In this document: piece by piece, positions 1,303 through 44,084 of the stretch
How the letters are laid out: each line of letters starts with the position of its first letter
How positions within the stretch are numbered: the stretch's first letter is position 1
Assembly: GCA_963733565.1 (NCBI GenBank)
Contig: CAVTDU010000038.1
Span: forward strand, 81,466 to 145,465
From: an uncultured Gammaproteobacteria bacterium
GTDB taxonomy: Bacteria; Pseudomonadota; Gammaproteobacteria; Steroidobacterales; Steroidobacteraceae
Direction of reading: 5' to 3'
DNA length: 64,000 nt
Made by a program: the position numbers and the translations under genes
Notes under the pieces: model-generated
The model's database searches: none
What the model was told of the DNA's origin: nothing
What the model saw: only the letters and a program-made list of their open reading frames with translations

Positions 1303-2735
<1,433 letters not shown>

Positions 2736-2764
2736 GGGAGCTCCGGCGGGAGGGAAGGAAAAAC

Positions 2765-2949
2765 AAGGGGGTAATGATCAGGGGGTAGGGGGTAGTGAAG
2801 AGGCTGCGGACAGTGAGTAGCGGATAGCGGATAGTGGATAGTAAGAATCAGCATCGGCCGGCACGCCGGCCTCTTCACTACCCCCTACCCCCTGATCACT
2901 ACCCCCTATTCTTCCTCTGACTATCCCTTATCCGCTACTCACCATTCAC
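2765..2949. repeat. composite palindromic heptad-repeat element E1 (REP-like), sucB-lpdA spacer
   Basis: Perfect 30-bp inverted repeat 2775-2804 / 2869-2898 (TGATCAGGGGGTAGGGGGTAGTGAAGAGGC). Second inverted pair 2811-2847 / 2909-2949 made of AGCGGAT heptads. GC apex palindrome GGCCGGCACGCCGGCC at 2856-2871. Confidence 0.9.
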
Positions 2950-2953
2950 TTCC

Positions 2954-4184
2954 TCAGACCTGCAGCAACAGCCGCGCCGGATCCTCCAGCGCGTCCTTCA
3001 CTGCGACGAGGAACTGCACGGCGTCGCGGCCGTCGACGATGCGGTGATCGTAGGTCAGCGCCAGGTACATCATCGGCCGCACGACGACCTGCCCGTCGAC
3101 CACGACCGGGCGTTCCTGGATCTTGTGCATGCCGAGGATCGCGCTCTGCGGGGCATTCAGGATCGGCGTCGACAGCAGCGAGCCGAACACGCCGCCGTTG
3201 GTGATCGTGAAGGTACCGCCGGTCAGTTCCTCGATCGTCAGCGAGCCCTCGCGCGCGCGGTTGGCGTAGCCCACCACGGCCTGCTCGATCTCACCGAAGC
3301 CGAGGGCATCGGCATTGCGCAGCACCGGCACGATGAGCCCGCGATCGGTAGAGACGGCCACGCCGATGTCGTAGTACTCGTGGTACACGATGTCGGTTCC
3401 ATCCACCGAGGCATTCACCAGCGGAAAGCGGCGCAGCGCCTCGATGCTGGCCTTGACGAAGAACGACATGAAACCGAGCCGCGCGCCGTGGGCCTTCTCG
3501 AAGCGCTCCTTGTAGCGCGCGCGCAGTTCGTTGACCGCCTTCAGGTCCACTTCATTGAACGTCGTCAGCATGGCGGCGGTCGCCTGGGCCTGCACGAGTC
3601 GCTCCGCAATGCGCGCCCGCAGGCGCGTCATCGGGACCCTGCGCTCGCCACGGGCGCCGGCCGGAGCACTCGCCGGCGCAGCAGGTGGCGCCGGAGTCGC
3701 GGCGGCAGCCGCGGGACCAGCCGCCCTTGCTGCCAAGGTGGGAAAGCACGTCACCCTTGGTGATGCGTCCGTCGCGGCCGCTGCCGGGAATCGCACCGGG
3801 CTCGAGCTTGTGCTCCTCGACGAGGCGACGCACGGAGGGCGCGAGCTTTTCGGCACTGCCGCCCGTCTTCGCATCGGCCGCTGGAGCAGGCTGCGTGGGC
3901 GCAGCAGGCGCCGTTGCCGCGGCTGGTGTCGAAGCTCCTGCGGCCGCGCCTTCATCGAGCAACGCGAGCACCTGGCCACTCGTGACGACGGCGCCGTTCT
4001 GCACCTTGAGTTCCCTGATGACGCCCGCCGCCGGCGCAGGCACTTCGAGCACGACCTTGTCGGTCTCGAGGTCGACGAGGTTCTCGTCGCGGCTCACCGC
4101 GTCGCCGGGCTTCTTGTGCCAGGCCACGAGCGTCGCATCCGCGACCGACTCGGGGAGTTGCGGGACGCGTACTTCGATGGTCAT
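2954..4184 (-). CDS. sucB: dihydrolipoyllysine-residue succinyltransferase (2-oxoglutarate dehydrogenase E2), one apparent frameshift
   Basis: N-terminal lipoyl domain [19 protein letters not shown]...[12 protein letters not shown]3-binding [13 protein letters not shown]-terminal catalytic domain with DHRIVDG. Frame switch near 3715-3730. Confidence 0.88.
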
Positions 4185-4263
4185 GTGTTCTTCCTGCTGG
4201 AGGCGCGCGCAATCGCTTCGGCGGCGGCGCGACTGGGGAGCTGCGGGACGCGTACTTCGATGG

Positions 4264-7162
<2,899 letters not shown>

Positions 7163-10544: not shown

Positions 10545-10620
10545 TGGCGCCCCGGATAGGAGTTGAACCTATGACCTACCGCTTAGGAGGCGGTCGCTCT
10601 ATCCACTGAGCTACCGGGGC
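10545..10620 (-). tRNA. tRNA-Arg (anticodon CCT)
   Basis: Reverse complement folds as a cloverleaf: acceptor GCCCCGG/CCGGGGC, anticodon arm ACCGC-CTCCTAA-GCGGT, T arm ATAGG-TTCAACT-CCTAT, encoded CCA. Confidence 0.9.
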
Positions 10621-10718: not shown

Positions 10719-10794
<76 letters not shown>

Positions 10795-13754: not shown

Positions 13755-13848
<94 letters not shown>

Positions 13849-29719: not shown

Positions 29720-30213
29720 AGCGACTTACGCTGGTACGTCATTCGAAATCGGACTGGTCGCTGCCCGGCCAGCAGGACTGGGACCGCGCGCTCAACAAGC
29801 GCGGACAGCGCGACGCTCCGGAAATGGCGCGACGCCTGCGCGCAAGGAAACTGAAGCCCGACGTCATCCTCTCGAGCCCGGCCGTGCGCGCGCTGGCTAC
29901 CGCCACGATCATGGCGCGGGAGCTCAAGGTCGCGGCCAGCATCGTCCGCCAGGACGAGCGGCTCTACCTCGCGGGGCCTGCCGACATGCTGACGGTGATC
30001 CGGGAACTCGGCGGCAGCGCAGGGCACCTGATGGTCTTCGGCCACAACCCCGGCATCACCGATTTCGCGAACCGGCTGTCCGCCGGGGACCGCATCGACA
30101 ACATGCCGACATCGGCGGTGTTCACCGCCACCTTCGCGATCCGGGACTGGAGCGAGCTCGACTGGGGCAGCGGCCAGGACGCGCAGTTCGACTACCCGAA
30201 GAACCTGGCCTAG
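29716..30213 (+). CDS. sixA: phosphohistidine phosphatase SixA-like
   Basis: LVRHSKS RH motif, size about 165 aa, GHNPG motif. Confidence 0.7.
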
Positions 30214-30917
30214 CCCCGCCCGAAGACGGGGACAGCAGCGCCGGTCACCGCCTCCGCGCTGTCGGAGGCAAGGAAAAGCACGACGTCTGCGATCGCCTCG
30301 GGCGTGACCCAGCGCGAGAAGTCCGCGTCCGGCATGTCCGAGCGGTTGCGGGGCGTGTCGATCGTGCCGGGCAGGATCGCATTCACCGTGATGCCGCGGT
30401 CCTTGAGTTCGTCCGCCAGGCTCTCGGTCAGCTTCTGCACGCCCGCCTTCGATGCGGTATACGCGCCCATGCCGGCGCCGGCGCGCGCGGCCGCTGCACC
30501 CGCCCCGATGTTGATGATGCGGCCCCTCCCTCGCTCCAGCAGCATGGGCAGCGCCTGCTTGCAACTCACCACCGCCGTGCGCAGGTTCATGCGGTAGAGC
30601 TGGTCCCAGGTCTCCACGTCGCCGTCCGCGAGCGTCTGCCACTGGAAGCCGCCGGCCACGTTCACCAGCACGTCCATTCCGCCGAGACGCATCGCGGCGG
30701 CCAGCATGGCCCGGCGCGTCGATTCCACGTCGCCGAGGTCCACGCCGCCGATCAGCAGATGACCCGTCGCGAACTCGGCCTGCAGCGCGGGCGGCGGAGT
30801 CTGCGCGAGGTCGAGCAGTGCGACGTTCGCGCCATGACGGGCGAACGCGCGCGCAACCGTCGAACCGAGCACGCCGAAGGCGCCGGTCACCACGACCACC
30901 CTGCCCTTCATGTCCAT
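30210..30917 (-). CDS. short-chain dehydrogenase/reductase (SDR)
   Basis: [18 protein letters not shown] glycine-rich NAD(P) motif and YTASK catalytic motif. Fused to sdaA in the ORF track only because of an upstream frameshift. Confidence 0.8.
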
Positions 30918-30919
30918 GC

Positions 30920-32291
<1,372 letters not shown>

Positions 32292-32471
32292 GGGGGAAGC
32301 GGGAAGCGGAAAGCGGTTAGTGACTAGCGGTTAGCGGTTAGTAGGAAGGATACTGCAGTGGCAGGTCCACGCGCTGACGTTCACGGAGAAGGATAGCCCG
32401 GCCGCAGCGCGCTGCCTCCTCACTAACCGCTAACCGCTGATCACTAACCACTTTCCGCTTCGCTTCCGCCT
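32292..32471. repeat. palindromic heptad-repeat element E2, putA-sdaA spacer
   Basis: Arms 32295-32349 and 32415-32470 are about 90 percent complementary (GGAAGCG / GTTAGCG heptads). 65-nt spacer ending in the palindrome GCAGCGCGCTGC. Fills the whole intergenic gap. Confidence 0.9.
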
Positions 32472-35400
32472 CTACTCCATCGCCAGCAGCGACGCATTCC
32501 CGCCGACCGCCGACGTGTTGATGGTGAGCGTCCGTTCGTGGGCGAACCGGTGCAGGTAGTGCGGACCGCCGGCCTTGGGTCCCGTTCCCGACAGCCCGCA
32601 GCCGCCGAACGGCTGGGTGCCGACCACGGCGCCGATCATGTTGCGGTTCACGTAGACGTTGCCGGCCGTGATGCGGGAGGTCACGCGTCGCACGGTGCTG
32701 TCGATGCGGCTGTGGATGCCGAAGGTCAGCCCGTAGCCCGTGCCGTTGATCGAATCGACGAGACTCTCCAGGTCCCGGGCACGGTACTGCAGCACGTGCA
32801 GGACCGGACCGAAGACCTCGCGTTCCAGCACGTCGATCGCCTTGATCTCGACTGCGAGCGGCGCGACGAAGGTGCCGGCACGGGTCGCGGGGCCGAGTTC
32901 ACAGCGGTGATGCCACGCAGCCCCCTGCACGATCGATTTCGAATGCCGCTCGAGGATGTCGCGCGCCGCCACGTCGATGACAGGCCCGACGTCCGTCGCC
33001 AGCAGGGCCGGATCGCCGATCACGAGCTCGTTCATGTAGCCCGCGAGCAGGCGCTTGACCTTGGGCGCGATGTCTTCCTGCACGCACAGCACGCGCAGCG
33101 CCGAGCAGCGCTGGCCGGCACTGTTGATGGAGGACTGCACGGCGTCGATGACAACCTGTTCCGGAAGCGCCGAGCTGTCCGCGATCATTGCGTTCTGGCC
33201 GCCGGTCTCGGCGATCAGGACCGGAATCGGCCCATCGCGTCCGGCGAGAGCCCGGTGGATGAGGTGGGCGGTCTCCGTCGAGCCCGTGAACGCCACGCCT
33301 GCAACGCGCCTGTCCGCGACCGCGCGCGCACCGACGATTGCACCGTCGCCCGGCAGGAAATGCAGCACCTCGCCCGGAATGCCCGCCTGCAGCATCAGCC
33401 GCACGGCCTGCGCCGCCACGAGCGGCGTCTGCTCGGCAGGCTTGGCGACGACGGCGTTGCCCGCCGCCAGCGCGGCGGCCACCTGCCCCGCGAAGATCGC
33501 CAGCGGAAAATTCCACGGGCTGATGCAGACGAATACGCCCCGTCCGTGCAGCGAGAGCTCGTTGCTCTCTCCGGTCGGTCCCGGCATGCGCAGCGGCTTG
33601 CCGAAGTCCTCCCTGGCGCGCGCGGCGTAGTAGCGCAGGAAATCCACGGCCTCGCGGACTTCCGCGATGCTGTCCGGCACCGTCTTGCCCGCCTCGCGGA
33701 CGCACATCGCGACCAGCTCGTGCAGGTTCTGCTGGAACAGGTCCGCTGCCCGGTCGAGCGCGGCCGCGCGCGGCTCCGGACCGGCCATGTCCCAGGCTGG
33801 CTGGGCTCGCACTGCCGCCGCGATCGCTTCATCCACCTGTGCAGCGCTGGCCGTACGCACGGTGCCCACGACTTCCGCCGTATTCGCCGGATTGCGGATC
33901 GGCTCCGCCGGTCCGTCCGCGTCGTGACCCGAGATGATCGGCGAGGCCACCCATGGGCGCTGCGACACGCGCTCCATGCGATCGGCAAGTTCGCGCAGCG
34001 TCCCGCCGTCCGCCAGGTTGAGACCAAGCGAATTGCGCCGCTGCGGCTCGTACAGGTTCACGGGCAACGGGATTCGCGGATGCGCGACGCGCTCCACGCT
34101 GTCCACCGTGCGCACCGGGTCCGCAACGATGCTGTCGACGGGCTCGGCTTCATTGACGATCCGGTTGACGAACGACGTGTTCGCGCCGTTCTCGAGCAGT
34201 CGCCGGACGAGGTATGGAAGCAGGTCCTCGTGCTCACCCACGGGTGCGTAGACGCGGCACGGTACGCCGATCCCGTCCGCCCTCGTGACCTCGGCGTACA
34301 GGCCCTCGCCCATGCCGTGCAGGCGCTGGAATTCGAATTCCCGCCCCGAGCGCCTGGCCATGTGCCACACGGCCGCCACCGTGTGCGCGTTGTGCGTGGC
34401 GAACTGCGGGTAGAGGCGGCCCGCCCCCTGCTCCAGGATCAGCCTCGCGCAGGCAAGGTACGAGACGTCCGTGTTCGGCTTGCGCGTGAACACCGGATAC
34501 CCCGCCAGGCCACGTTCCTGGCCGCGCTTGATCTCTGCGTCCCAGTACGCGCCCTTGACGAGCCGCACGTGCAGTACCCGGTTCGTCTCCGTCGCGAGGC
34601 CGGCGAGATACCGCAGCGCCGCCTGCGCGCGCTTCTGGTAGGCCTGGACCGCGATGCCGAAGCCGGACCATTCGGCGAGGCGCGGCGACCGGCAGACCGC
34701 CTCGACCAGTTCGAGCGTGAGCTCGAGGCGCTCCGACTCCTCCGCGTCGAGCGTGAGCGCAACTCCGGCGTCACGCGCGCCGACGCACAACTCGACCAGT
34801 CGCGGCGCGAGCTCGGCCAGCACGCGACGGCGGTGCGCGCGCTCGAACTTCGGATGCAGCGCGGAGAGCTTGACCGAGATGCTCGGCCGCGACTCTGCGT
34901 CGGCGTACTCGCCGGCGCGGCCCTGCAGCGCACCGATGGCGCGCCCGTAGGCGTCGAAGTAGCGATCGGCGTCGGCGCTGGTCAGTGCCGCTTCGCCGAG
35001 CATGTCGAACGTGTATCGATAGCGACGGTTGGCGCCGGCGAGCGAATTGTCGAGCGCTTCGGCAATCGTGCGCCCCATCACGAACTGGTGGCCCATGATG
35101 CGCATCGCCTGGCGCATCGCGGTGCGCACGACCGGCTCGCCCATGCGGCCGACGACGCGCGAGATCGCTCCCTGCGGCGCCGAAACGTCGCTCGCGTCGA
35201 GGCGGATGATGCGGCCCGTGAGCATGAGTCCCCAGGTCGAGGCATTCACGAACAGCGACTGGCTGTCGCCGAGGTGACTCGCCCAGTCGCCTGCCCTGAG
35301 CTTGTCGGCGATCAGGCGATCCGCGGTCTCGTCGTCCGGAATCCTGAGCAGGGCCTCGGCGAGGCACATCAGGATCACGCCTTCCTGCGAGGACAGATCG

Positions 35401-35657
35401 TACTGGCGCAGGAATGCATCGATCCCGCTCTTCGCCGCCGGGGCACGCCGCACAGCTTCGACGAGGCGCGTGGCGGTAGCCTGCACCTCGGCCGAATCCG
35501 CGTCACCGAGGCGAGCGGCCGCGGCCAGCCGACGCACGACCGCCTCCTCGTCGGCGAGGAAGTCTTCGTTGATCGCCCGCCCGGCGTCCGTCAGGAAATC
35601 CGCGGCATCGGCAAACAGGAACCTGGACGAAGATCCTTCGCCGGATGGACTGGACAT
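32472..35657 (-). CDS. putA: bifunctional proline dehydrogenase / L-glutamate gamma-semialdehyde dehydrogenase PutA
   Basis: Intact 1061-aa ORF with an N-terminal PRODH barrel and a C-terminal aldehyde dehydrogenase (FTGSTETA, ETGGQNA...CSA). Confidence 0.92.
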   Translation of the reverse strand: MSSPSGEGSSSRFLFADAADFLTDAGRAINEDFLADEEAVVRRLAAAARLGDADSAEVQATATRLVEAVRRAPAAKSGIDAFLRQYDLSSQEGVILMCLAEALLRIPDDETADRLIADKLRAGDWASHLGDSQSLFVNASTWGLMLTGRIIRLDASDVSAPQGAISRVVGRMGEPVVRTAMRQAMRIMGHQFVMGRTIAEALDNSLAGANRRYRYTFDMLGEAALTSADADRYFDAYGRAIGALQGRAGEYADAESRPSISVKLSALHPKFERAHRRRVLAELAPRLVELCVGARDAGVALTLDAEESERLELTLELVEAVCRSPRLAEWSGFGIAVQAYQKRAQAALRYLAGLATETNRVLHVRLVKGAYWDAEIKRGQERGLAGYPVFTRKPNTDVSYLACARLILEQGAGRLYPQFATHNAHTVAAVWHMARRSGREFEFQRLHGMGEGLYAEVTRADGIGVPCRVYAPVGEHEDLLPYLVRRLLENGANTSFVNRIVNEAEPVDSIVADPVRTVDSVERVAHPRIPLPVNLYEPQRRNSLGLNLADGGTLRELADRMERVSQRPWVASPIISGHDADGPAEPIRNPANTAEVVGTVRTASAAQVDEAIAAAVRAQPAWDMAGPEPRAAALDRAADLFQQNLHELVAMCVREAGKTVPDSIAEVREAVDFLRYYAARAREDFGKPLRMPGPTGESNELSLHGRGVFVCISPWNFPLAIFAGQVAAALAAGNAVVAKPAEQTPLVAAQAVRLMLQAGIPGEVLHFLPGDGAIVGARAVADRRVAGVAFTGSTETAHLIHRALAGRDGPIPVLIAETGGQNAMIADSSALPEQVVIDAVQSSINSAGQRCSALRVLCVQEDIAPKVKRLLAGYMNELVIGDPALLATDVGPVIDVAARDILERHSKSIVQGAAWHHRCELGPATRAGTFVAPLAVEIKAIDVLEREVFGPVLHVLQYRARDLESLVDSINGTGYGLTFGIHSRIDSTVRRVTSRITAGNVYVNRNMIGAVVGTQPFGGCGLSGTGPKAGGPHYLHRFAHERTLTINTSAVGGNASLLAME

Positions 35658-37696: not shown

Positions 37697-40600
37697 CTAG
37701 TGAAAGTCACGCGGGCTGGTCGCGATCCGCCCCAGCCACCGCGACAGATCCACGATCCGGTGCGCGATCACGTGCATCACCTCGCCCTCGAGCTGCAGTT
37801 CCCCCGCCACGCCCATCAGGCGCGAGCCGATGAGCGCCTGGCGCTGGCGGTCGGCCACGTTTCTCCACACGATCAGGTTGACGTACCCCGTCTCGTCCTC
37901 GAGCGTGACGAAGGTGACGCCCTGGGCGCTGCCTGGACGCTGCCGCGTGATGACGAGCCCGGCGGTGCGGACCGTCGCGCCCTGCTTCATCCCGCGCAAC
38001 TGCGCCGCGGTCAGGATCCCGCGCGTCTCGAGCCTTGCCCGCAGCAGCGCCAGCGGGTGGCGACGCAGCGTGAGCCCCGTGTGTGCGTAGTCGGCCACGA
38101 TATCCTCGCCTTCGCGCGGCGCACGCAGCATGGGTATGCCTTCGGCAATCCGCAGCTGCGGGAGGATCGGCAGCGGCGCCTCGACGCCAGCCACGTTCCA
38201 CGCGGCCCGGTGGCGATGGCCTGCGAATCCTTCGAGCGCACCAGCGGCGGCCAGGCAGCCGAGTTCGCGGCGGTCGAGCCTGGCCCGTTCGGCGAGGTCC
38301 TGCACGTTCGCGAACGCGCCCGTGAGCCGCGTCTCGACGAGGCGCAGCGCGGCCGGCTCCGACAGTCCCTTCACCAGCCGCAGGCCGAGGCGCAGCGCCG
38401 CTGCGCCGTCCTCGCGCCGCTCGAGCGTGCAGTCCCAGTCGCTCGCGCGCGCGTCGACCGGGCGGATCTCGACGTCATGGCGTTGCGCGTCCTGCACGAG
38501 CTGCGACGGCGCGTAGAACCCCATCGGCTGGCTGTTCAGCAGCGCCGCGGTGAATGCCGCCGGCTCGTGGCGCTTGAGCCACGCCGACACGTACACCAGC
38601 AGCGCAAAGCTCGCGGCATGCGACTCCGGGAATCCGTACTCGCCGAAACCGAGGATCTGCCGGAAGATCTGCTTCGCGAACTCCTCGGCGTAGCCCCGCT
38701 CGCGCATGCCGCGAATCAGCCGTTCCTCGAAGTGCCCGAGTCCGCCCTTGCGCTTCCAGGCGGCCATCGCGCGGCGCAGCTGGTCCGCCTCGCCCGCCGT
38801 GAAGCCCGCGGCGACGATCGCCAGCTGCATCACCTGCTCCTGGAAGATCGGCACGCCGAGCGTGCGCTGCAGCACTCCTTCGACTTCCGCGCTGGGGTAA
38901 CTCACGGGCTCGAGCCCGCCGCGGCGGCGCAGGTACGGGTGCACCATGTCGCCCTGGATCGGGCCCGGGCGGATGATCGCCACTTCGATCACGAGGTCGT
39001 AGTAATTGCGCGGCTTCAGGCGCGGCAGCATCGCCATCTGCGCACGCGACTCGATCTGGAACACGCCCATCGTGTCGCCGTGGCCGATCATCTCGTAGAC
39101 GTCCGGGTCTTCCGCCGGCACGCTCGCGAGCGTCCAGCGCGTGCCGCGGAACTGCTCGACCAGCGCGAAGGCACGGCGGATGGCGGCGAGCATGCCGAGT
39201 CCGAGCACGTCCACCTTGAGGAGCCCGAGCGCGTCGAGGTCGTCCTTGTCCCACTGGATGACCGTGCGCTCGTCCATCGCGGCATTCTCGACCGGCACCA
39301 GTTCCTCGAGCAGGTCGCGCGCGATGACGAAACCGCCGACGTGCTGCGACAGGTGCCGCGGGAAGCCGAGCAGCGCACGGGCCAGCGCGATCACCCGCGC
39401 GAGCACCGGGCTCTCGGGATCGAGGCCCGCCTCGCGCACGCGCTCCGCATCGATGTGCGACCCGTCCCACCACTGCATGGAGCGGGCGAGCGCGTTGACC
39501 TGCAGCGGGTCGAGCCCGAGCGCCCTTGCCACGTCGCGGAGCGCGCTGCGCGGCCGGTAGCAGATCACCGTGGCCGTGAGCGCGGCGCGGTGCCGGCCGT
39601 ACTTCGCGTAGATGTACTGGATCACCTCCTCGCGCCGCTCGTGCTCGAAGTCCACGTCGATGTCGGGCGGCTCGTTGCGTTCGCGCGAGATGAAGCGCTC
39701 GAAGAGCAGCGACATCCGCGCCGGGTCCACCTCGGTGACGCCGAGGCAGAAGCACACCGCGGAATTGGCGGCGGACCCGCGCCCCTGGCAGAGGATGCCG
39801 CGCGACCGCGCGTAGTTGACGATGTCGTGCACGGTGAGGAAATACGCCTCGTAGCGCAGCTCCTCGATCAGCGCGAGCTCGTGCTCGATGAGTTTCGCCG
39901 CCGCTGCCGGCACTCCTTGCGGCCAGCGTCGCCGGCACCCCTCGTCCGTCAGCCTGCGCAGCCAGCTCGAGGCCGTCTCGCCCTCGGGGACGATCTCGCG
40001 CGGATATTCGTAGCGCAACTCGTCGAGCGAGAAACGGCAGCGTGACGCGACATCGAGCGTCGCGGCGAGGAGCTCCGGGGGATGGAGTTCCTCCAGCCGC
40101 TGCAGCGGCCGCAGGTGCCGTTCGCCGTTCGCATGCAACGCGTAGCCTGCGCGGTCCACGGTGGTCCCGAGGCGCGTGGCCGTGAGCACGTCCTGCAGCG
40201 CGCGCCGGCCGCGCACGTGCATGTGCACGTCGCCGGTCGCCACCAGTGGCAGGCCGAGCGCCCGGCCGAGTTCCTGCAGCGTCGCGAGCCGGCGGCGATC
40301 ATGCCCGGTGGTGAGCAGCTCGACCGCGATCCACAGCCGGCCGGGAAAGATCGCAGCGAGCCAGGCGGCCTCCGAGGGATCGGGGCGGGCCGAGGGCAGC
40401 CAGAGAGCCAGGCAGGAGGGAAAGGGGATAGCGGATAGCGGTTAGCGGTTAGTGAAGAGGCCGACTGCGTCGGCCGCTCTTGATTCTTACTATCCGCTAA
40501 CCGCTGATCACTAACCGCTCTCTTGCTATCCGCTACCCCGCTCCTCTCCCCGCGAAGTCCTCCCGCTCCAGCCGATACTGCCCCTTCGGCGCCGCCCGTC

Positions 40601-40886
40601 GCGCCCGGGTGATCAGCCGGCAGAGTTGCCCGTAGCCTTGCCTGTCGGTGGCCAGCAGCACGCAACGCAGGCCGTCGACGAGGCGGAATTCGCTGCCGAT
40701 GATTATCCTGAGGCCCCTCGCCTTTGCCGCGACGTGTGCGCGCACCGCACCGGCGACGGAACACTCGTCGGTGATCGCGAGCGCCTCGTAACCGAGCGCG
40801 ACGGCCCGTTCGACGAGTTCCTCCGGGTGCGACGCGCCGCGCAGGAAGCTGAAATTGCTGAGGCAGTGCAGTTCGGCGTAGCCCAT
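37697..40886 (-). CDS. dnaE2: error-prone DNA polymerase DnaE2 (ImuC), coding sequence interrupted by element E3
   Basis: N-terminal PHP fragment [19 protein letters not shown]... (40533-40886) stops at a TAG inside E3. The remaining roughly 915 codons are open from 40441 down to 37697 (...[12 protein letters not shown]...[13 protein letters not shown]...) in another frame. Confidence 0.9.
40415..40550. mobile_element. palindromic heptad-repeat element E3 inserted in dnaE2
   Basis: Left arm TAGCGGA/TAGCGGT heptads (TAG at 40429, 40436, 40443, 40450), apex GGCCGAC-TGC-GTCGGCC (40459-40475), right arm of complementary heptads. Same family as E1, E2 and E4. Confidence 0.85.
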
Positions 40887-40892
40887 GTCCGC

Positions 40893-42582
40893 TCAGCCGA
40901 ACACGCCATGCAGAAACCAGCGGCCCTCCGCACGTCGCTCGCGAAACACCCACAGGCGCATGCCGCCGGCCGTGCGCGCCACGTAGTAGTCGCGCCGCAC
41001 GTCACGACCGTCCCACCATCCGGATTCGATGCGTTCCGGGCCTTCCTCGAATTCGAGCCTGCCCTCGTAGCGCGGATGCTCCCTTCCGTCGAGCGGCTGC
41101 GGCTCCGCGAGCAGCCACAGCGGCCTGGAGGGGACATTCTCCGGGAGGGGGACATTTTCCCGGAGGGGACATTCCCTCTTCCGGCCGACGCTTCCCGTAG
41201 CGGAGAGGGCAAAGGGGAATGTCCCTTCCCCTCCCCGGGAGAATGTCCCCTATTTCCCAGGCGGACTCGGGGCGATGCTCCGGCACCACCTGTATCCCGT
41301 ACACCGCGTCCGTGCCGAGTCGTGCCCGCAGGCGCTCGACCAGTTGCGGCACGCTGGTCGAGCGCCCCCGGGCGCGTGCAAAGAGATCGCTGGCCTCCGG
41401 GTTCGCCACCACCAACGGGCCGCTCCGCAGGCGGAGCGCGCGTACGGGCCCGGGCAACTCAGTGCGTGCAAGCCGCTCGCGCAGCAGCTCGGTAATCCGG
41501 CCGGCCTGCGCCGTGGGCTCCGCAAGGCGCAGACACACGCGTGTCGGTGGCACATCGCGGTGCAGCAGCGAGAAGTCGAGCACGTCCACCCCGCAACACC
41601 TGAGCTCGAGGAACGAGCACAGTTCATCCACCAGCGGCCCGGCAGCCCGGCCAAGGCGTTCCGTGTCGGAGATCTCGGGCTCGAGGTCGCGCCGCACCGA
41701 GTAGCGTTCCCGCGGCACGAAGGCGACACGCGGATCGGGCGCGCACCCGACGGCACGATCGAGCGCACGCAGCATCTGCGGCACGAACCGGCGGGCGAAT
41801 CCGTCACGCGGCAGCTTCAGGCAATCGCCGATGGTGCGCACGCCCATCGCAGCGAGTGGCTCCAGGCACTTTTCCGGCCAGCGCGCACAGGCGAGCGGCA
41901 GCCGCGCGAGGCGGCTTGCGAGTCCGTCCCTGCTGCGCAAGGCGACTTCCTCGCCCATGCGCGCGAACCAGAGCGAAGCCAGCGGCGTTGGCGTGAGCGC
42001 GAGCAGCGGCGCCAGACCCATGGATTGCAGCCGCTCACGCACCCGGGCGATGAAACGTCGTACGCCGCCGAACAGCCTGAGACTGCCGCGCACTTCGAGC
42101 AGCACCGCGTCGGGCGGCTCGAGCACGACGCGCGGCGTGAATCCGATTGCGATTGTTGCCACTGCCTCGAGCAGCGCGCGTTCGGCCTGCGCGTCGCGCG
42201 CCAGCACGTGCAGGCCAGGCAGCAATGCGAGGGCCGAGTTGAGCGCCATTCCGCGCGTGACGCCGGCCGCGACCGCAGCGGCATCACCTGCGCAGACCAC
42301 CTTGCCTCCGCCTTCCAGGTCCACGACCACGGTGGCGGTGCCGGGGTCGTGCCCGGCGACGTGCTGCGCAGCCGCCGTGCGCTGGCGCAGAGACTCGAGC
42401 ACGTAGTGCGGCAGATGAATCGCGAGCCAGAGTTCGTTGCTCGTCGCGGCCGCGCGGACCGGCTTGCCTGCGCCACGCCCTCCGCCAGGTGCTGGCCGCA
42501 GCCCCGGCTGGTTTCGCACCGTTGCGCGAGACGGCTGGACTGCGGGCGTGGCCCGACGTTTTCCGGGCAGCGACATGGTCAA
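40893..42582 (-). CDS. imuB: Y-family-polymerase-like ImuB, coding sequence interrupted by element E5
   Basis: Core NELWLAIHLPHYVLESL... to ...PEHRPESAWEI (41251-42582). Conserved C-terminal RPLWLLAEPQPL...ERIESGWWDG...WFLHGVFG (40893-41129) lies in a shifted frame after the 121-bp element. Confidence 0.88.
41130..41250. mobile_element. 121-bp palindromic element E5 (GGGGACATT words) inserted in imuB
   Basis: Perfect 13-bp terminal inverted repeat GGGGACATTCTCC (41130-41142) / GGAGAATGTCCCC (41238-41250). Three forward and two reverse GGGGACATT copies. No flanking direct repeat. Confidence 0.85.
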
Positions 42583-43223
42583 TGCGCGACGGCGTGCGCC
42601 GCGGGGTCGAGCCAGCCGAGCTGCACGGTCGCCGCCTGCCCGCCGCGGCTCTTCACGATGTGCACCACGAGGCCCTTGCGACTGGATTCGAGCGCGATGC
42701 GCAACACCGCGGGCGACGGCTCATTGCCATCGGCCAGCCTGCGGAAGAGCACCGCCATGCAGCGCGACTGCTCTGCCGCGAGTTGCAGGCGGCGCAGTCC
42801 CTGGCGATCGCGAAACTCCGCCCAGCCGAGCACGGCGCTGCAGGCGCCCGAGCGCAGCGCCTGTTCCATCGCCCACTCCGCAGGCTGTGCGCGCACGAGC
42901 AGCAGGCGCCGCACGTCGATGCCGCATGCGACGAGTGCGGGTGCGTAAGGCTGGTAGGGCGGCGCGACCCACGCGAGCCAGCCTTCCCCATGATCCTCGT
43001 GGCCCAGCGCGGCGAGCGCGGGCATGAGCAGGCTCAGTTCACCCACGCCGTGACGATCGGTGAGGATCTCGATCAGTCCCTGCGCAGGCCAGCCGCCGCC
43101 GGGCAGGCAACGATCGAGCGCCACGTATCCCGTGGGCCGACCCGCGGGCTGCGACGTCGCTCCGCCCTGCTCCCTCGCGCGCCAGAGACCGGGATGACGC
43201 AGCAGGTCGTCGATGGAAGACAT
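42579..43223 (-). CDS. imuA: SOS cell-division-inhibitor-like / RecA-fold protein ImuA
   Basis: 214-aa protein directly upstream of imuB with a 4-nt overlap. Typical ImuA pattern (...LPGGGWPAQGLIEIL...). Position in a lexA-imuA-imuB-dnaE2 cassette. Confidence 0.8.
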   Translation of the reverse strand: MSSIDDLLRHPGLWRAREQGGATSQPAGRPTGYVALDRCLPGGGWPAQGLIEILTDRHGVGELSLLMPALAALGHEDHGEGWLAWVAPPYQPYAPALVACGIDVRRLLLVRAQPAEWAMEQALRSGACSAVLGWAEFRDRQGLRRLQLAAEQSRCMAVLFRRLADGNEPSPAVLRIALESSRKGLVVHIVKSRGGQAATVQLGWLDPAAHAVAH

Positions 43224-43466
43224 GGGGAGGGGAAGCGGATAGTGAGTAGCGGATAGTGGATAGTGAGAACGGAAAGGGGGTAGTGATCAGGGGGTAGGGG
43301 GTAGTGGAAGAAGAAAGCGGTTCGTGATCAGCGGTTAGCGGTTAGTGAGGAGTAAGGATCGGCCGGCGCGCCGGCCTCTTCACTATCCCCTACCCCCTGC
43401 TCACTACCCCCTCTCCGACTTCTTACTAACCGCTATCCGCTAACCGCTAGTCACTCTCCGCTTTCC
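43224..43466. repeat. 243-bp composite heptad-repeat palindromic element E4 filling the lexA-imuA spacer
   Basis: Three left heptad blocks (AGCGGAT, AGGGGGT and AGCGGTT types), the perfect 16-nt palindrome GGCCGGCGCGCCGGCC (43361-43376), then complementary right blocks. Confidence 0.9.
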
Positions 43467-44084
43467 TCACGCCCTGCCCGCCTCCTGCCTGACCACCCCG
43501 ACCACCACGCCTTCGATGATCAGCGACTCGTGCTTGAGGTCGACGCGCAGCGGCTCGAAGTCCAGGTTCTCGGGCAGCAGCCACACGACCGTGCCCTCCT
43601 GGCGATAGCGCTTCACGGTCACCTCGTTCTCGAGCCGCGCCACGACGATCTGCCGGTTGCGCACCTCGGGTGTGCGGTGAACGGCGACGAGGTCGCCATC
43701 GAGGATGCCGGCGTTCTTCATGCTCATGCCGCGCACCTTGAGCAGGTAGTGCGGCCGCGGCTGGAAGAGCTGCGGGTCGATCTGGTAGTGCGCCTCGATG
43801 TTTTCCTCGGCAAGGATGGGCCGGCCGGCGGCGACCCGTCCGATGAGCGGCAGGCCGAGCTGTTCGCGCAGGGAGTCGCGGAGCAGGATGCCGCGCGAGG
43901 TGCCCGGCCGCAGGTCGAGGACGCCCTTGCGCTGCAGGGCTCGCAGGTGATCCTCGGCAGCGTTGGCCGACTTGAAGCCAAGCGCCTCGGCGATTTCGGC
44001 GCGGGTGGGCGGCATGCCCTGCTGGTCCACGGCGTCCTGGATGAAACGCAGGACCTGTCGCTGGCGCGGGGTGAGATCATCCAT
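43467..44084 (-). CDS. lexA: LexA repressor
   Basis: [17 protein letters not shown] wHTH, AAG cleavage site (VAAGRP), S24 peptidase GMSMK ... KR catalytic residues. Confidence 0.92.

Follow-up and report, generated by a model that had tools for sequence, protein, structure and literature searches.

A 64-kb stretch of the genome of an uncultured gammaproteobacterium (68% G+C; GenBank assembly GCA_963733565.1, contig CAVTDU010000038.1, positions 81,466 to 145,465; hereafter the window) contains four quasi-palindromic elements, E1 to E4, with tandem NNNNTAG words on the 5' arm and their complement on the 3' arm. ImuA homologues point to a Steroidobacteraceae-like gammaproteobacterium as the host. 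Our results suggest, with a probability of roughly 0.6, that E1 to E4 are lineage-specific repeats of Steroidobacteraceae-type gammaproteobacteria, resembling repetitive extragenic palindromes (REPs) and bacterial interspersed mosaic elements (BIMEs), and that their TAG stop codons are a by-product of the 7-nt word and not a selected barrier. The elements join two known kinds of repeat, GTAG REPs and heptameric simple sequence repeats (SSRs), and are not a new category. A preliminary description of this DNA had proposed a dispersed family of elements made of heptamer words, and this family is genuine, with four elements per 64 kb at unrelated loci as counted in the window alone.

Sequence and fold define E4 (positions 43224-43466 of the window) as a 243-nt heptamer-armed hairpin that occupies the entire gap between the lexA stop codon and the imuA start codon. 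On the plus strand, the G-form arm or arms (43224-43359) consist of NNNNTAG words (CGGATAG, TGAGTAG, TGGATAG, GGGGTAG and CGGTTAG) interspersed with in-register TGATCAG, TGAGGAG and similar units; a central GC palindrome, GGCCGGC-GC-GCCGGCC (43360-43375), separates these from the C-form arm or arms (43376-43466), made of CTANNNN words and including a 3'-side orphan arm beside the lexA stop. E1 (2736-2953, 218 nt) extends from the stop codon of sucB (2954-2956) to the start codon of lpdA (2733-2735), and E2 (32292-32471, 180 nt) from the stop of putA to the start of a serine dehydratase gene, so that E1, E2 and E4 each take up the whole interval from an upstream stop codon to a downstream start codon. 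E3 (approximately 40410-40548, about 139 nt) lies within the dnaE2 coding sequence, in a linker 3' of the N-terminal PHP segment, and its core is oriented opposite to those of the other three. The preliminary description had placed TAG in E4 at 43240, 43247, 43254, 43261, 43281, 43295, 43302, 43336 and 43343 and CTA at 43383, 43390, 43404, 43426, 43433, 43440 and 43447, with further TAG runs in E1 (2818, 2825, 2832 and 2839), E2 (32318, 32325, 32332 and 32339) and E3 (40429, 40436, 40443 and 40450); every one of these coordinates is right, as is the presence of TGATCA in each element.

Tandem Repeats Finder called period-7 arrays in every arm of E1 to E4, and among the 215 TAG and 153 CTA trinucleotides of the window, TAG pairs at a lag of 7 nt numbered 15 (0.72 expected from frequencies) and CTA pairs 10 (0.37 expected), while no other lag from 1 to 29 gave more than 9. 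All TAG and CTA clusters lie within E1 to E4, except for a CTA cluster at 10569, which is a tRNA gene. The mRNA strand is the minus strand for all four, and RNA folds of this strand gave hairpins 140 to 250 nt long with energies of -133.3 kcal/mol for E1 (z score, -10.5), -118.9 for E2 (z, -11.4), -80.8 for E3 (z, -5.8) and -142.1 for E4 (z, -10.2).

The evidence for copying between loci comes from the core. E1, E3 and E4, at unrelated loci, share a non-repetitive core of 30 to 50 nt, TAGTGAAGAGGCCGRC-N2-3-GYCGGCC followed by sequence of the GATTCTTACTATCC or GATCCTTACTCC type, which suggests that copies have passed from one locus to another. The flanks of the E4 palindrome, TCTTCACTA and TAGTGAAGAGG, are common to E1 and occur in a variant form in E3. 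In each copy a GC-rich stem-loop lies between TAG-TGA(A/G)GAGG and CCTCTTCA-CTA, and a short GC palindrome of the GTAG-REP type (stem of 6-13 bp, loop mostly of 2-3 nt) is present in all four elements: GGCCGGC-RY-GCCGGCC in E1 and E4, GGCCGAC-TGC-GTCGGCC in E3 and CAGCGCGCTG in E2, which keeps the plan with a different palindrome. The tag preceding TGAAGAGG is GTAG in E1, ATAG in E4 and TTAG in E3. This tag is paired with CTAC or CTA opposite, with no one-sided tail, and recurs every 7 nt. The likeness to REPs with GTAG/CTAC heads had been well drawn, but the contiguous innermost unit on which it was based, GTAG-TGAAGAGGCCGGC..GCCGGCCTCTTCA-CTAC, is a reconstruction: the arms of E1 are interleaved, a 51-nt solo G-arm module (approximately 2809-2859) interrupting the inner palindrome and splitting its left half, and in E4 the GC stem is directly bordered by the right half alone.

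GTAG-tagged REPs have stems of 6 to 13 bp with short loops, and their dimers can form one large hairpin (PMC3733652). Most of them are situated between genes in co-directional or convergent arrangement and near the 3' ends of open reading frames (ORFs), where they have been reported as RNA elements and where their termini often supply a TAG stop codon, and they are found in frame in genes for DNA synthesis and repair, DnaE2 being named explicitly (PMC3733652). The elements described here are like GTAG REPs, BIMEs and REP doublets forming hairpins (REPINs) (Di Nocera 2013, PMC3733652; Nunvar 2010, PMC2817692) in their GC-rich stem-loop with GTAG/CTAC heads, in inverted partners that form one large hairpin, in their association with co-directional genes and ORF 3' ends and in their gammaproteobacterial host. 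E1, E2 and E4 adjoin stop codons, the terminus donates a TAG stop in two relatives (L151 and L153, in which the lexA stop is the first TAG of the array), and in-frame copies occur in DnaE2, one of the repair genes in which GTAG REPs are found. They differ in that their arms are arrays of a 7-nt word and not a single unit of 20 to 40 bp; in that their length, 140 to 270 nt, changes by units and modules between strains; and in that the tag is often TTAG or ATAG and is paired with CTA instead of forming an unpaired tail at one end, with no REP-associated tyrosine transposase (RAYT) found.

The arms resemble heptameric SSRs. In Xanthomonas, each genome has been reported to carry about 180 heptamer arrays in intergenic positions, with some arrays inverted and extensive variation in length across species, and a slippage explanation linked to the polymerase active site has been raised for such repeats (PMC4692102); that paper credits a 2007 survey with the finding that bacteria carry an excess of heptameric SSRs. 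Like the GGGAATC arrays of Xanthomonas and the GGGGAYT arrays of Nostoc (Rehm 2015, PMC4692102), those described here have a 7-nt unit, are intergenic, occur about once per 15 to 30 kb, vary strongly in length and sequence among close relatives (146 to 272 nt among strains) and include inverted, stem-loop-capable forms. Unlike those arrays, they use the words GCGGWTA and GGGGGTA, and complementary arms surround a REP-like core and fill stop-start junctions. The combination had been presented as one not recognised in a high-GC proteobacterium; with TAG-donating GTAG REPs, REPs inside DnaE2 (PMC3733652) and the xanthomonad arrays (PMC4692102) already published, that view is not supported. No paper was returned when the literature was searched for the letters of the arrays themselves.

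Other known repeats share some of these features. The TAACTGA repeats of Beggiatoaceae, cyanobacteria and Bacteroidetes (MacGregor 2015, PMC4679880) are also tandem, stop-containing heptamers placed a few nucleotides upstream of start codons where no canonical ribosome-binding site is present, but they are a different word in other taxa and consist of 2 to 6 direct copies, with no complementary arm or GC stem. The earlier comparison with heptameric SSRs such as the short tandemly repeated repetitive (STRR) sequences of heterocystous cyanobacteria was apt: STRRs, as cited in PMC4692102 for Calothrix PCC 7601 (three tandem heptanucleotides), are likewise tandem and intergenic, but our host is a gammaproteobacterium with other words, and STRRs are not known to be palindromic. 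Rickettsia palindromic elements, as far as they are treated in PMC3733652, are palindromes kept in frame and translated in coding genes, but are unrelated in sequence, belong to an AT-rich host and have no heptamer arms.

If E1 to E4 are REP-like repeats, copies would spread among loci as non-autonomous DNA, whether through transposition or through ectopic recombination or gene conversion. Arms would lengthen and shorten when the polymerase slips, and such slippage in bacteria is known to favour heptamers. The complementarity of the arms may be maintained by hairpin-templated repair or copying, or by selection; in the latter case a compact hairpin would loop out of the operon mRNA, so that the downstream gene is still expressed. 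Both the TAG periodicity of 7 nt and the stops in three frames would be inherited from the word, which may be a reiterated GTAG-like tail.

The lexA-imuA junction was compared in relatives found through their ImuA (identities of 48 to 99%), which gave 7 loci from assemblies and 59 from metagenomes, and its states were placed on a neighbour-joining tree of ImuA. The junction is empty (TGAATG) in four lineages (L007 and L142-144), has a 3-nt gap (TGA-AGA-ATG) in L139 and holds 19 to 45 nt of non-repeat sequence in several others. A solo G-arm of 34 nt (AGAAAGCGGATAGTGATCAGCGGTT..) is present in the sister group of the window (L002, L003, L135 and L136), and further solo arms occur in L172 (30 nt) and L137 (C-arm alone). 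A heptamer hairpin of 98 to 272 nt is found in at least six separate clades, with unrelated centres and different words (GCGGATA, GGGGGTA, GGGGATA/G, GTGATTG, GTGTCCA and one 8-mer). Occupied and empty states are patchy on the tree and require at least six gains or many losses. All 15 lineage variants fold (z scores of -4 to -14), with the outermost pair beginning at the stop codon, and throughout the Steroidobacteraceae lineage the polarity is constant, G-form first and C-form second. The putA-sdaA junction shows the same contrast, TAG-CCT-GTG in L004 versus 180 nt in the window. At 97 to 100% ImuA identity the element measures 146, 185, 229, 243 or 272 nt, with differences in modules of 25 to 50 nt, so that turnover is rapid. 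Strain differences in general consist of 7-nt units and modules of 21 to 50 nt, some of them mirrored on both arms: L164, L169 and L182 share a centre and have different arms, and L164 carries a 21-nt duplication in mirror image on both. The preliminary description had offered loss of TAG periodicity on alignment of more copies as a reason to abandon its reading; the periodicity is kept in this lineage and gone in some others.

The copy inside dnaE2 needs separate consideration. In the window, the N-terminal part of dnaE2, E3 (by its open frame) and the C-terminal part each use a different frame. More than 20 relatives, represented by short-read contigs, have as their dnaE2 linker a heptamer hairpin of 111 to 150 nt; its length is divisible by 3, it contains no stop when read in the dnaE2 frame and it encodes a peptide. 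In other lineages the linker is only 21 to 24 nt. The gene is out of frame only in the window and in L001, a European Nucleotide Archive long-read metagenome contig from a near-identical strain, both being long-read assemblies with the shifts located in G or C runs. Besides dnaE2 (37697-40953), which changes frame on both sides of E3, signs of frameshift or fusion in the window are lpdA (1352-2735), which is split over two frames, and the serine dehydratase ORF (30210-32291), which runs into an adh_short domain. These frameshifts are probably assembly errors, homopolymer indels and not pseudogenes, and E3, judged by its relatives, is probably an in-frame, translated copy, because the short-read relatives are all in frame, lpdA is also split and the shifts lie in G/C runs. 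A disruptive insertion of E3 into dnaE2 was rejected as the likely state on the same evidence from the short-read relatives and the window lpdA. The coding copies have broken runs of TAG words (TAG to CAG) with one frame left open; therefore, the element persists without three-frame closure. In one relative with 95% ImuA identity (L002, 12640-12725), the linker consists of about 11 in-register G-form heptamers (GGGGTAG TGATCAG GGGGCAG GGGGTCG TGAAGAG ...) with no complementary arm, in frame, i.e., a solo arm within a protein.

It is possible, though on balance unlikely, that the hairpin is a selected regulator acting at the RNA level to tune operon expression. One such effect would be to shield the upstream mRNA against 3' exonucleases. 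Another would be to damp or uncouple downstream translation (for example, to keep ImuA, ImuB and DnaE2 low relative to LexA), and a third to place the upstream Shine-Dalgarno and stop region beside the downstream start, which would let coupling survive. The exact fit from stop to start, the maintenance of structure with different words in 15 lineages, the repeated occupation of one junction and the report of REPs as RNA elements near ORF 3' ends (PMC3733652) are all consistent with such a role. So is the sequence before the ATG in E2 and E4, where no Shine-Dalgarno motif was found between hairpin and start and which is C-rich (in E4, ..CCGCTTCCCCTCCCC-ATG). However, close relatives manage with 0 to 34 nt at the same junctions, length and modules vary at 97 to 100% protein identity in a manner unlike a tuned regulator, and the role is inapplicable to the in-frame copy within a protein. 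An intrinsic terminator was ruled out, as no U tract follows any of the four hairpins on the minus strand (the E4 3' flank, ..CCGCTTCCCCTCCCC, is C-rich). A known RNA family was likewise excluded: an Rfam search of the window returned only tRNAs above the gathering threshold and, at E values of up to 1, only sub-threshold generic microRNA-precursor hairpins. Integron attC sites and CRISPR, judged on layout only, were set aside because the flanks are core housekeeping operons with no spacers and no cassettes.

The distribution of heptamer arrays is far wider than this lineage. A scan for (GGWTAGC)3, with one genome per species, found it at 120 loci or more, spread over more than 15 phyla and including Steroidobacteraceae, compared with about 8 expected by chance (chance figures for these scans are our own calculation from pattern degeneracy and estimated collection size). 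In these loci, exact tandem arrays of at least three copies numbered 188 at period 7, about 70 of them with other words, and at most 24 at each of the remaining periods from 4 to 12, in a sample biased by the choice of loci for a heptamer array. Loci selected by protein instead gave 6 arrays at period 7 versus 1 to 4 at periods 5, 6, 8 and 9, all of which are small numbers. In viral contigs the real word occurred at 24 loci and permuted control words at 21, 15 and 36, where by a rough estimate chance would give about 1 each. As the control words were as common as the real one, the breadth reflects a general excess of heptamer SSRs and not this word, and a universal motif or horizontal transfer of (GGWTAGC)3 was rejected.

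Several of these arrays merit description in their own right. In Steroidobacteraceae and related metagenome-assembled genomes (MAGs; L054, L123, L061, L037 and L118), further intergenic heptamer arrays (GGGAACA, GTGAGTC, GGTGAAC and CCGTTTT) often form inverted pairs, indicating that the lineage has a whole repertoire of 7-mers. Four Gemmatimonadales MAGs (L057, 4910-5060; L100, 5945-6105; L098, 888-1037; and L060) have GCGGATA arrays of reverse polarity around a terminator-like hairpin. In Methylotuvimicrobium buryatense 5G (L015, 5210-5440), an (AGCAGAA)n array and 17 copies of GCTAACC, which are not complementary, surround a short centre with promoter-like sequence, TTGACA..TATAAAAT.

Some results weigh against the interpretation of E1 to E4 as dispersed REP-like repeats. 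The preliminary description had suggested a search for a linked RAYT gene, and tblastn with Y1/RAYT-like queries, run against the window and 1.25 Mb of loci, found no RAYT/Y1 gene (PF01797) either in the window or at any locus from Steroidobacteraceae, a weak test because the loci are fragments of many genomes. The sole match, Pfam-confirmed as Y1_Tnp (PF01797) and serving as a positive control, was in an Acidobacteriaceae MAG (L069, JBATVK010000111.1). Filled and empty junctions show neither a target-site duplication nor fixed ends, the hallmarks of miniature inverted-repeat transposable elements. The centres differ wholly between lineages at one junction, which fits in-place growth and fold-back duplication without mobility; E1 and E4 have arms interleaved as a-b-stem-a'-b', an order for which simple nested insertion does not account; and the recurrent filling of one junction could reflect positive selection for function. 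The layout around the L069 gene is the classical RAYT-REP one (2700-3400), in which a 151-amino-acid Y1_Tnp gene lies between CGCCGGG-N-CCCGGCGCTTCTACC REPs on both sides; these are ordinary GTAG REPs and not heptamer arms, and a heptamer array lies 1 kb away, apparently within a coding region.

A rival explanation is a purely local origin, in which heptamer microsatellites expand in place by slippage and fold-back (template-switch) synthesis turns them into palindromes, with no mobile element involved. The solo arms (L002, L003, L135, L136, L172 and L137), the centres unique to each lineage, the mirrored duplication in L164 and the occurrence of heptamer arrays of many words across many phyla would all be explained in this way. 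We nevertheless regard it as rather improbable: it leaves the 30- to 50-nt non-repetitive core shared by E1, E3 and E4 at unrelated loci to be explained, and a junction gap of 0 to 3 nt gives slippage no seed. Telomere-like end addition, with the G-rich strand running 5' to 3' toward the centre on both strands, was also considered; the Gemmatimonadales arrays are of the opposite polarity.

A more speculative proposal, which we hold to be improbable, is that the elements form a class of self-symmetrising palindromic heptamer repeats. These would be targeted to, or retained at, the stop-start junctions of operons since the hairpin loops out; the ribosome-binding and termination region upstream would thus stay beside the downstream start codon, and translational coupling would survive an insertion of 150 to 270 nt. 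Their arms may also form a platform of XAG-N4 motifs on which a ring-shaped RNA-binding protein could act to open the hairpin.

The preliminary description gave TAG as the only invariant core of the word and read the arms as presenting stop codons, in all three frames on both strands, to ribosomes that come from outside, ahead of the central palindrome. The corresponding model is a designed barrier of three-frame stop arrays, maintained by selection to stop ribosomes whichever side they approach from. Closure on both strands stands for E4, and on the plus strand each of E1 to E4 closes three frames by TAG in its 5' half; on the minus strand, which is that of the mRNA, it fails for the other three, as TAG closes two frames of E1 and TGA the third, the third frame of E2 is open to nt 132, beyond the centre, and one frame of E3 is open throughout. 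In 192 period-7 arrays from all fetched sequence (1,234 units, with the register taken from the array consensus and not from the TAG of each unit), mismatch rates along NNNNTAG were 0.20, 0.13, 0.17 and 0.19 for N1 to N4 and 0.19, 0.13 and 0.09 for T, A and G. Conservation is thus mild and limited to A, G and G2 of the heptamer word, with T as free as any other column, so that TAG is not the sole invariant core; in E4 itself, in-register units also end in CAG (TGATCAG), GAG, AAC and TCG. Closure of three frames is nothing special, because 7 = 1 mod 3 and any tandem heptamer that contains a stop, such as the TAG-containing word here, closes them automatically. The constant polarity of the lineage and the use of the array's first TAG as the gene's own stop codon in several relatives can be cited for a barrier. 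However, hairpins with few or no TAGs occupy the same junction in relatives, the dnaE2 copies keep an open frame and upstream genes have their own stop codon directly before the element. The gene is followed in Gemmatimonadales by the C-form array and only then by the G-form array, the opposite of all Steroidobacteraceae copies, which leaves no stops after the gene. Among other, non-seed heptamer words, those with a stop on 0, 1 or 2 strands numbered 25, 22 and 8 (30.6, 19.3 and 5.1 expected), which is not a significant enrichment. Selection for stop arrays is therefore very unlikely.

A comparison may also be made with HutP, a Firmicute protein. Its binding site in the Bacillus hut terminator consists of two clusters, each of three XAG motifs, that flank a GC-rich terminator stem; HutP recognises A and G specifically, and the model RNA has 4-nt spacers between the motifs (PMC2425495); the resulting spacing of about 7 nt around a GC-rich stem resembles the layout here, but HutP sites are defined 3+3 motifs with a known Firmicute protein partner and our arrays are longer and more variable. 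A binding platform, whether (NAG-N4)n arrays recognised by a ring protein of the HutP/TRAP type that opens or closes the hairpin or 7-bp iterons read by a DNA-binding protein, would suit the conservation of A and G with a free T, but we consider it barely credible given arrays far longer and more variable than a defined site and base-paired in the hairpin, and lineages with non-AG words.

The genes around the elements, identified with Pfam, are all on the minus strand. E3 and E4 both lie in the lexA-imuA-imuB-dnaE2 SOS mutagenesis operon, E4 at the lexA-imuA junction and E3 within dnaE2: lexA (43467-44084; LexA_DNA_bind and Peptidase_S24 domains) adjoins E4 by its TGA stop, imuA (42579-43223) by its ATG, and imuB (41002-42582; IMS family) and dnaE2 (37697-40886, containing E3) follow. 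The stop codon of a sucB-like gene for a 2-oxoacid dehydrogenase E2 component (2954-3979) adjoins E1, as does the start of an lpdA-like gene (1368-2735), of which only the N-terminal 167 amino acids match in frame. E2 is adjoined by the TAG stop of putA (32472-35657) and by the ATG of the L-serine dehydratase ORF (30210-32291) that continues into the adh_short domain. A gene caller based on G+C content at third codon positions, for relating arrays to gene orientation, gave unreliable results in this high-GC, frameshifted DNA and was abandoned. Three tRNA genes lie on the minus strand (10548-10620, 10722-10794 and 13760-13848), the first of which accounts for the CTA cluster outside the elements. 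A tandem repeat of period 18 (2.8 copies; consensus, GGAGGGGACATTCTCCC) is present in the imuB region (41127-41174), and a unit with a start-codon-like GGTCAT at 4146-4317 may be either a real duplication or an assembly artefact.

In summary, the elements link two repeat classes usually handled apart, REP hairpins of the GTAG type and heptameric microsatellites. In practical terms, they give rise to spurious frameshifts and broken genes when genomes are assembled from long reads, they donate stop codons to their neighbours and they would offer useful strain-typing markers for an uncultured lineage of soil and sediment. If the self-symmetrising proposal were true, the mirrored expansion of arms by hairpin-templated copying would be a mechanism not described for REPs. 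The lexA-imuA junction, with its empty, solo-arm and full-hairpin states over graded relatives, is a natural system for the birth and symmetric growth of palindromic repeats, and the same series bears on how such repeats are tolerated within operons and even within a polymerase gene.

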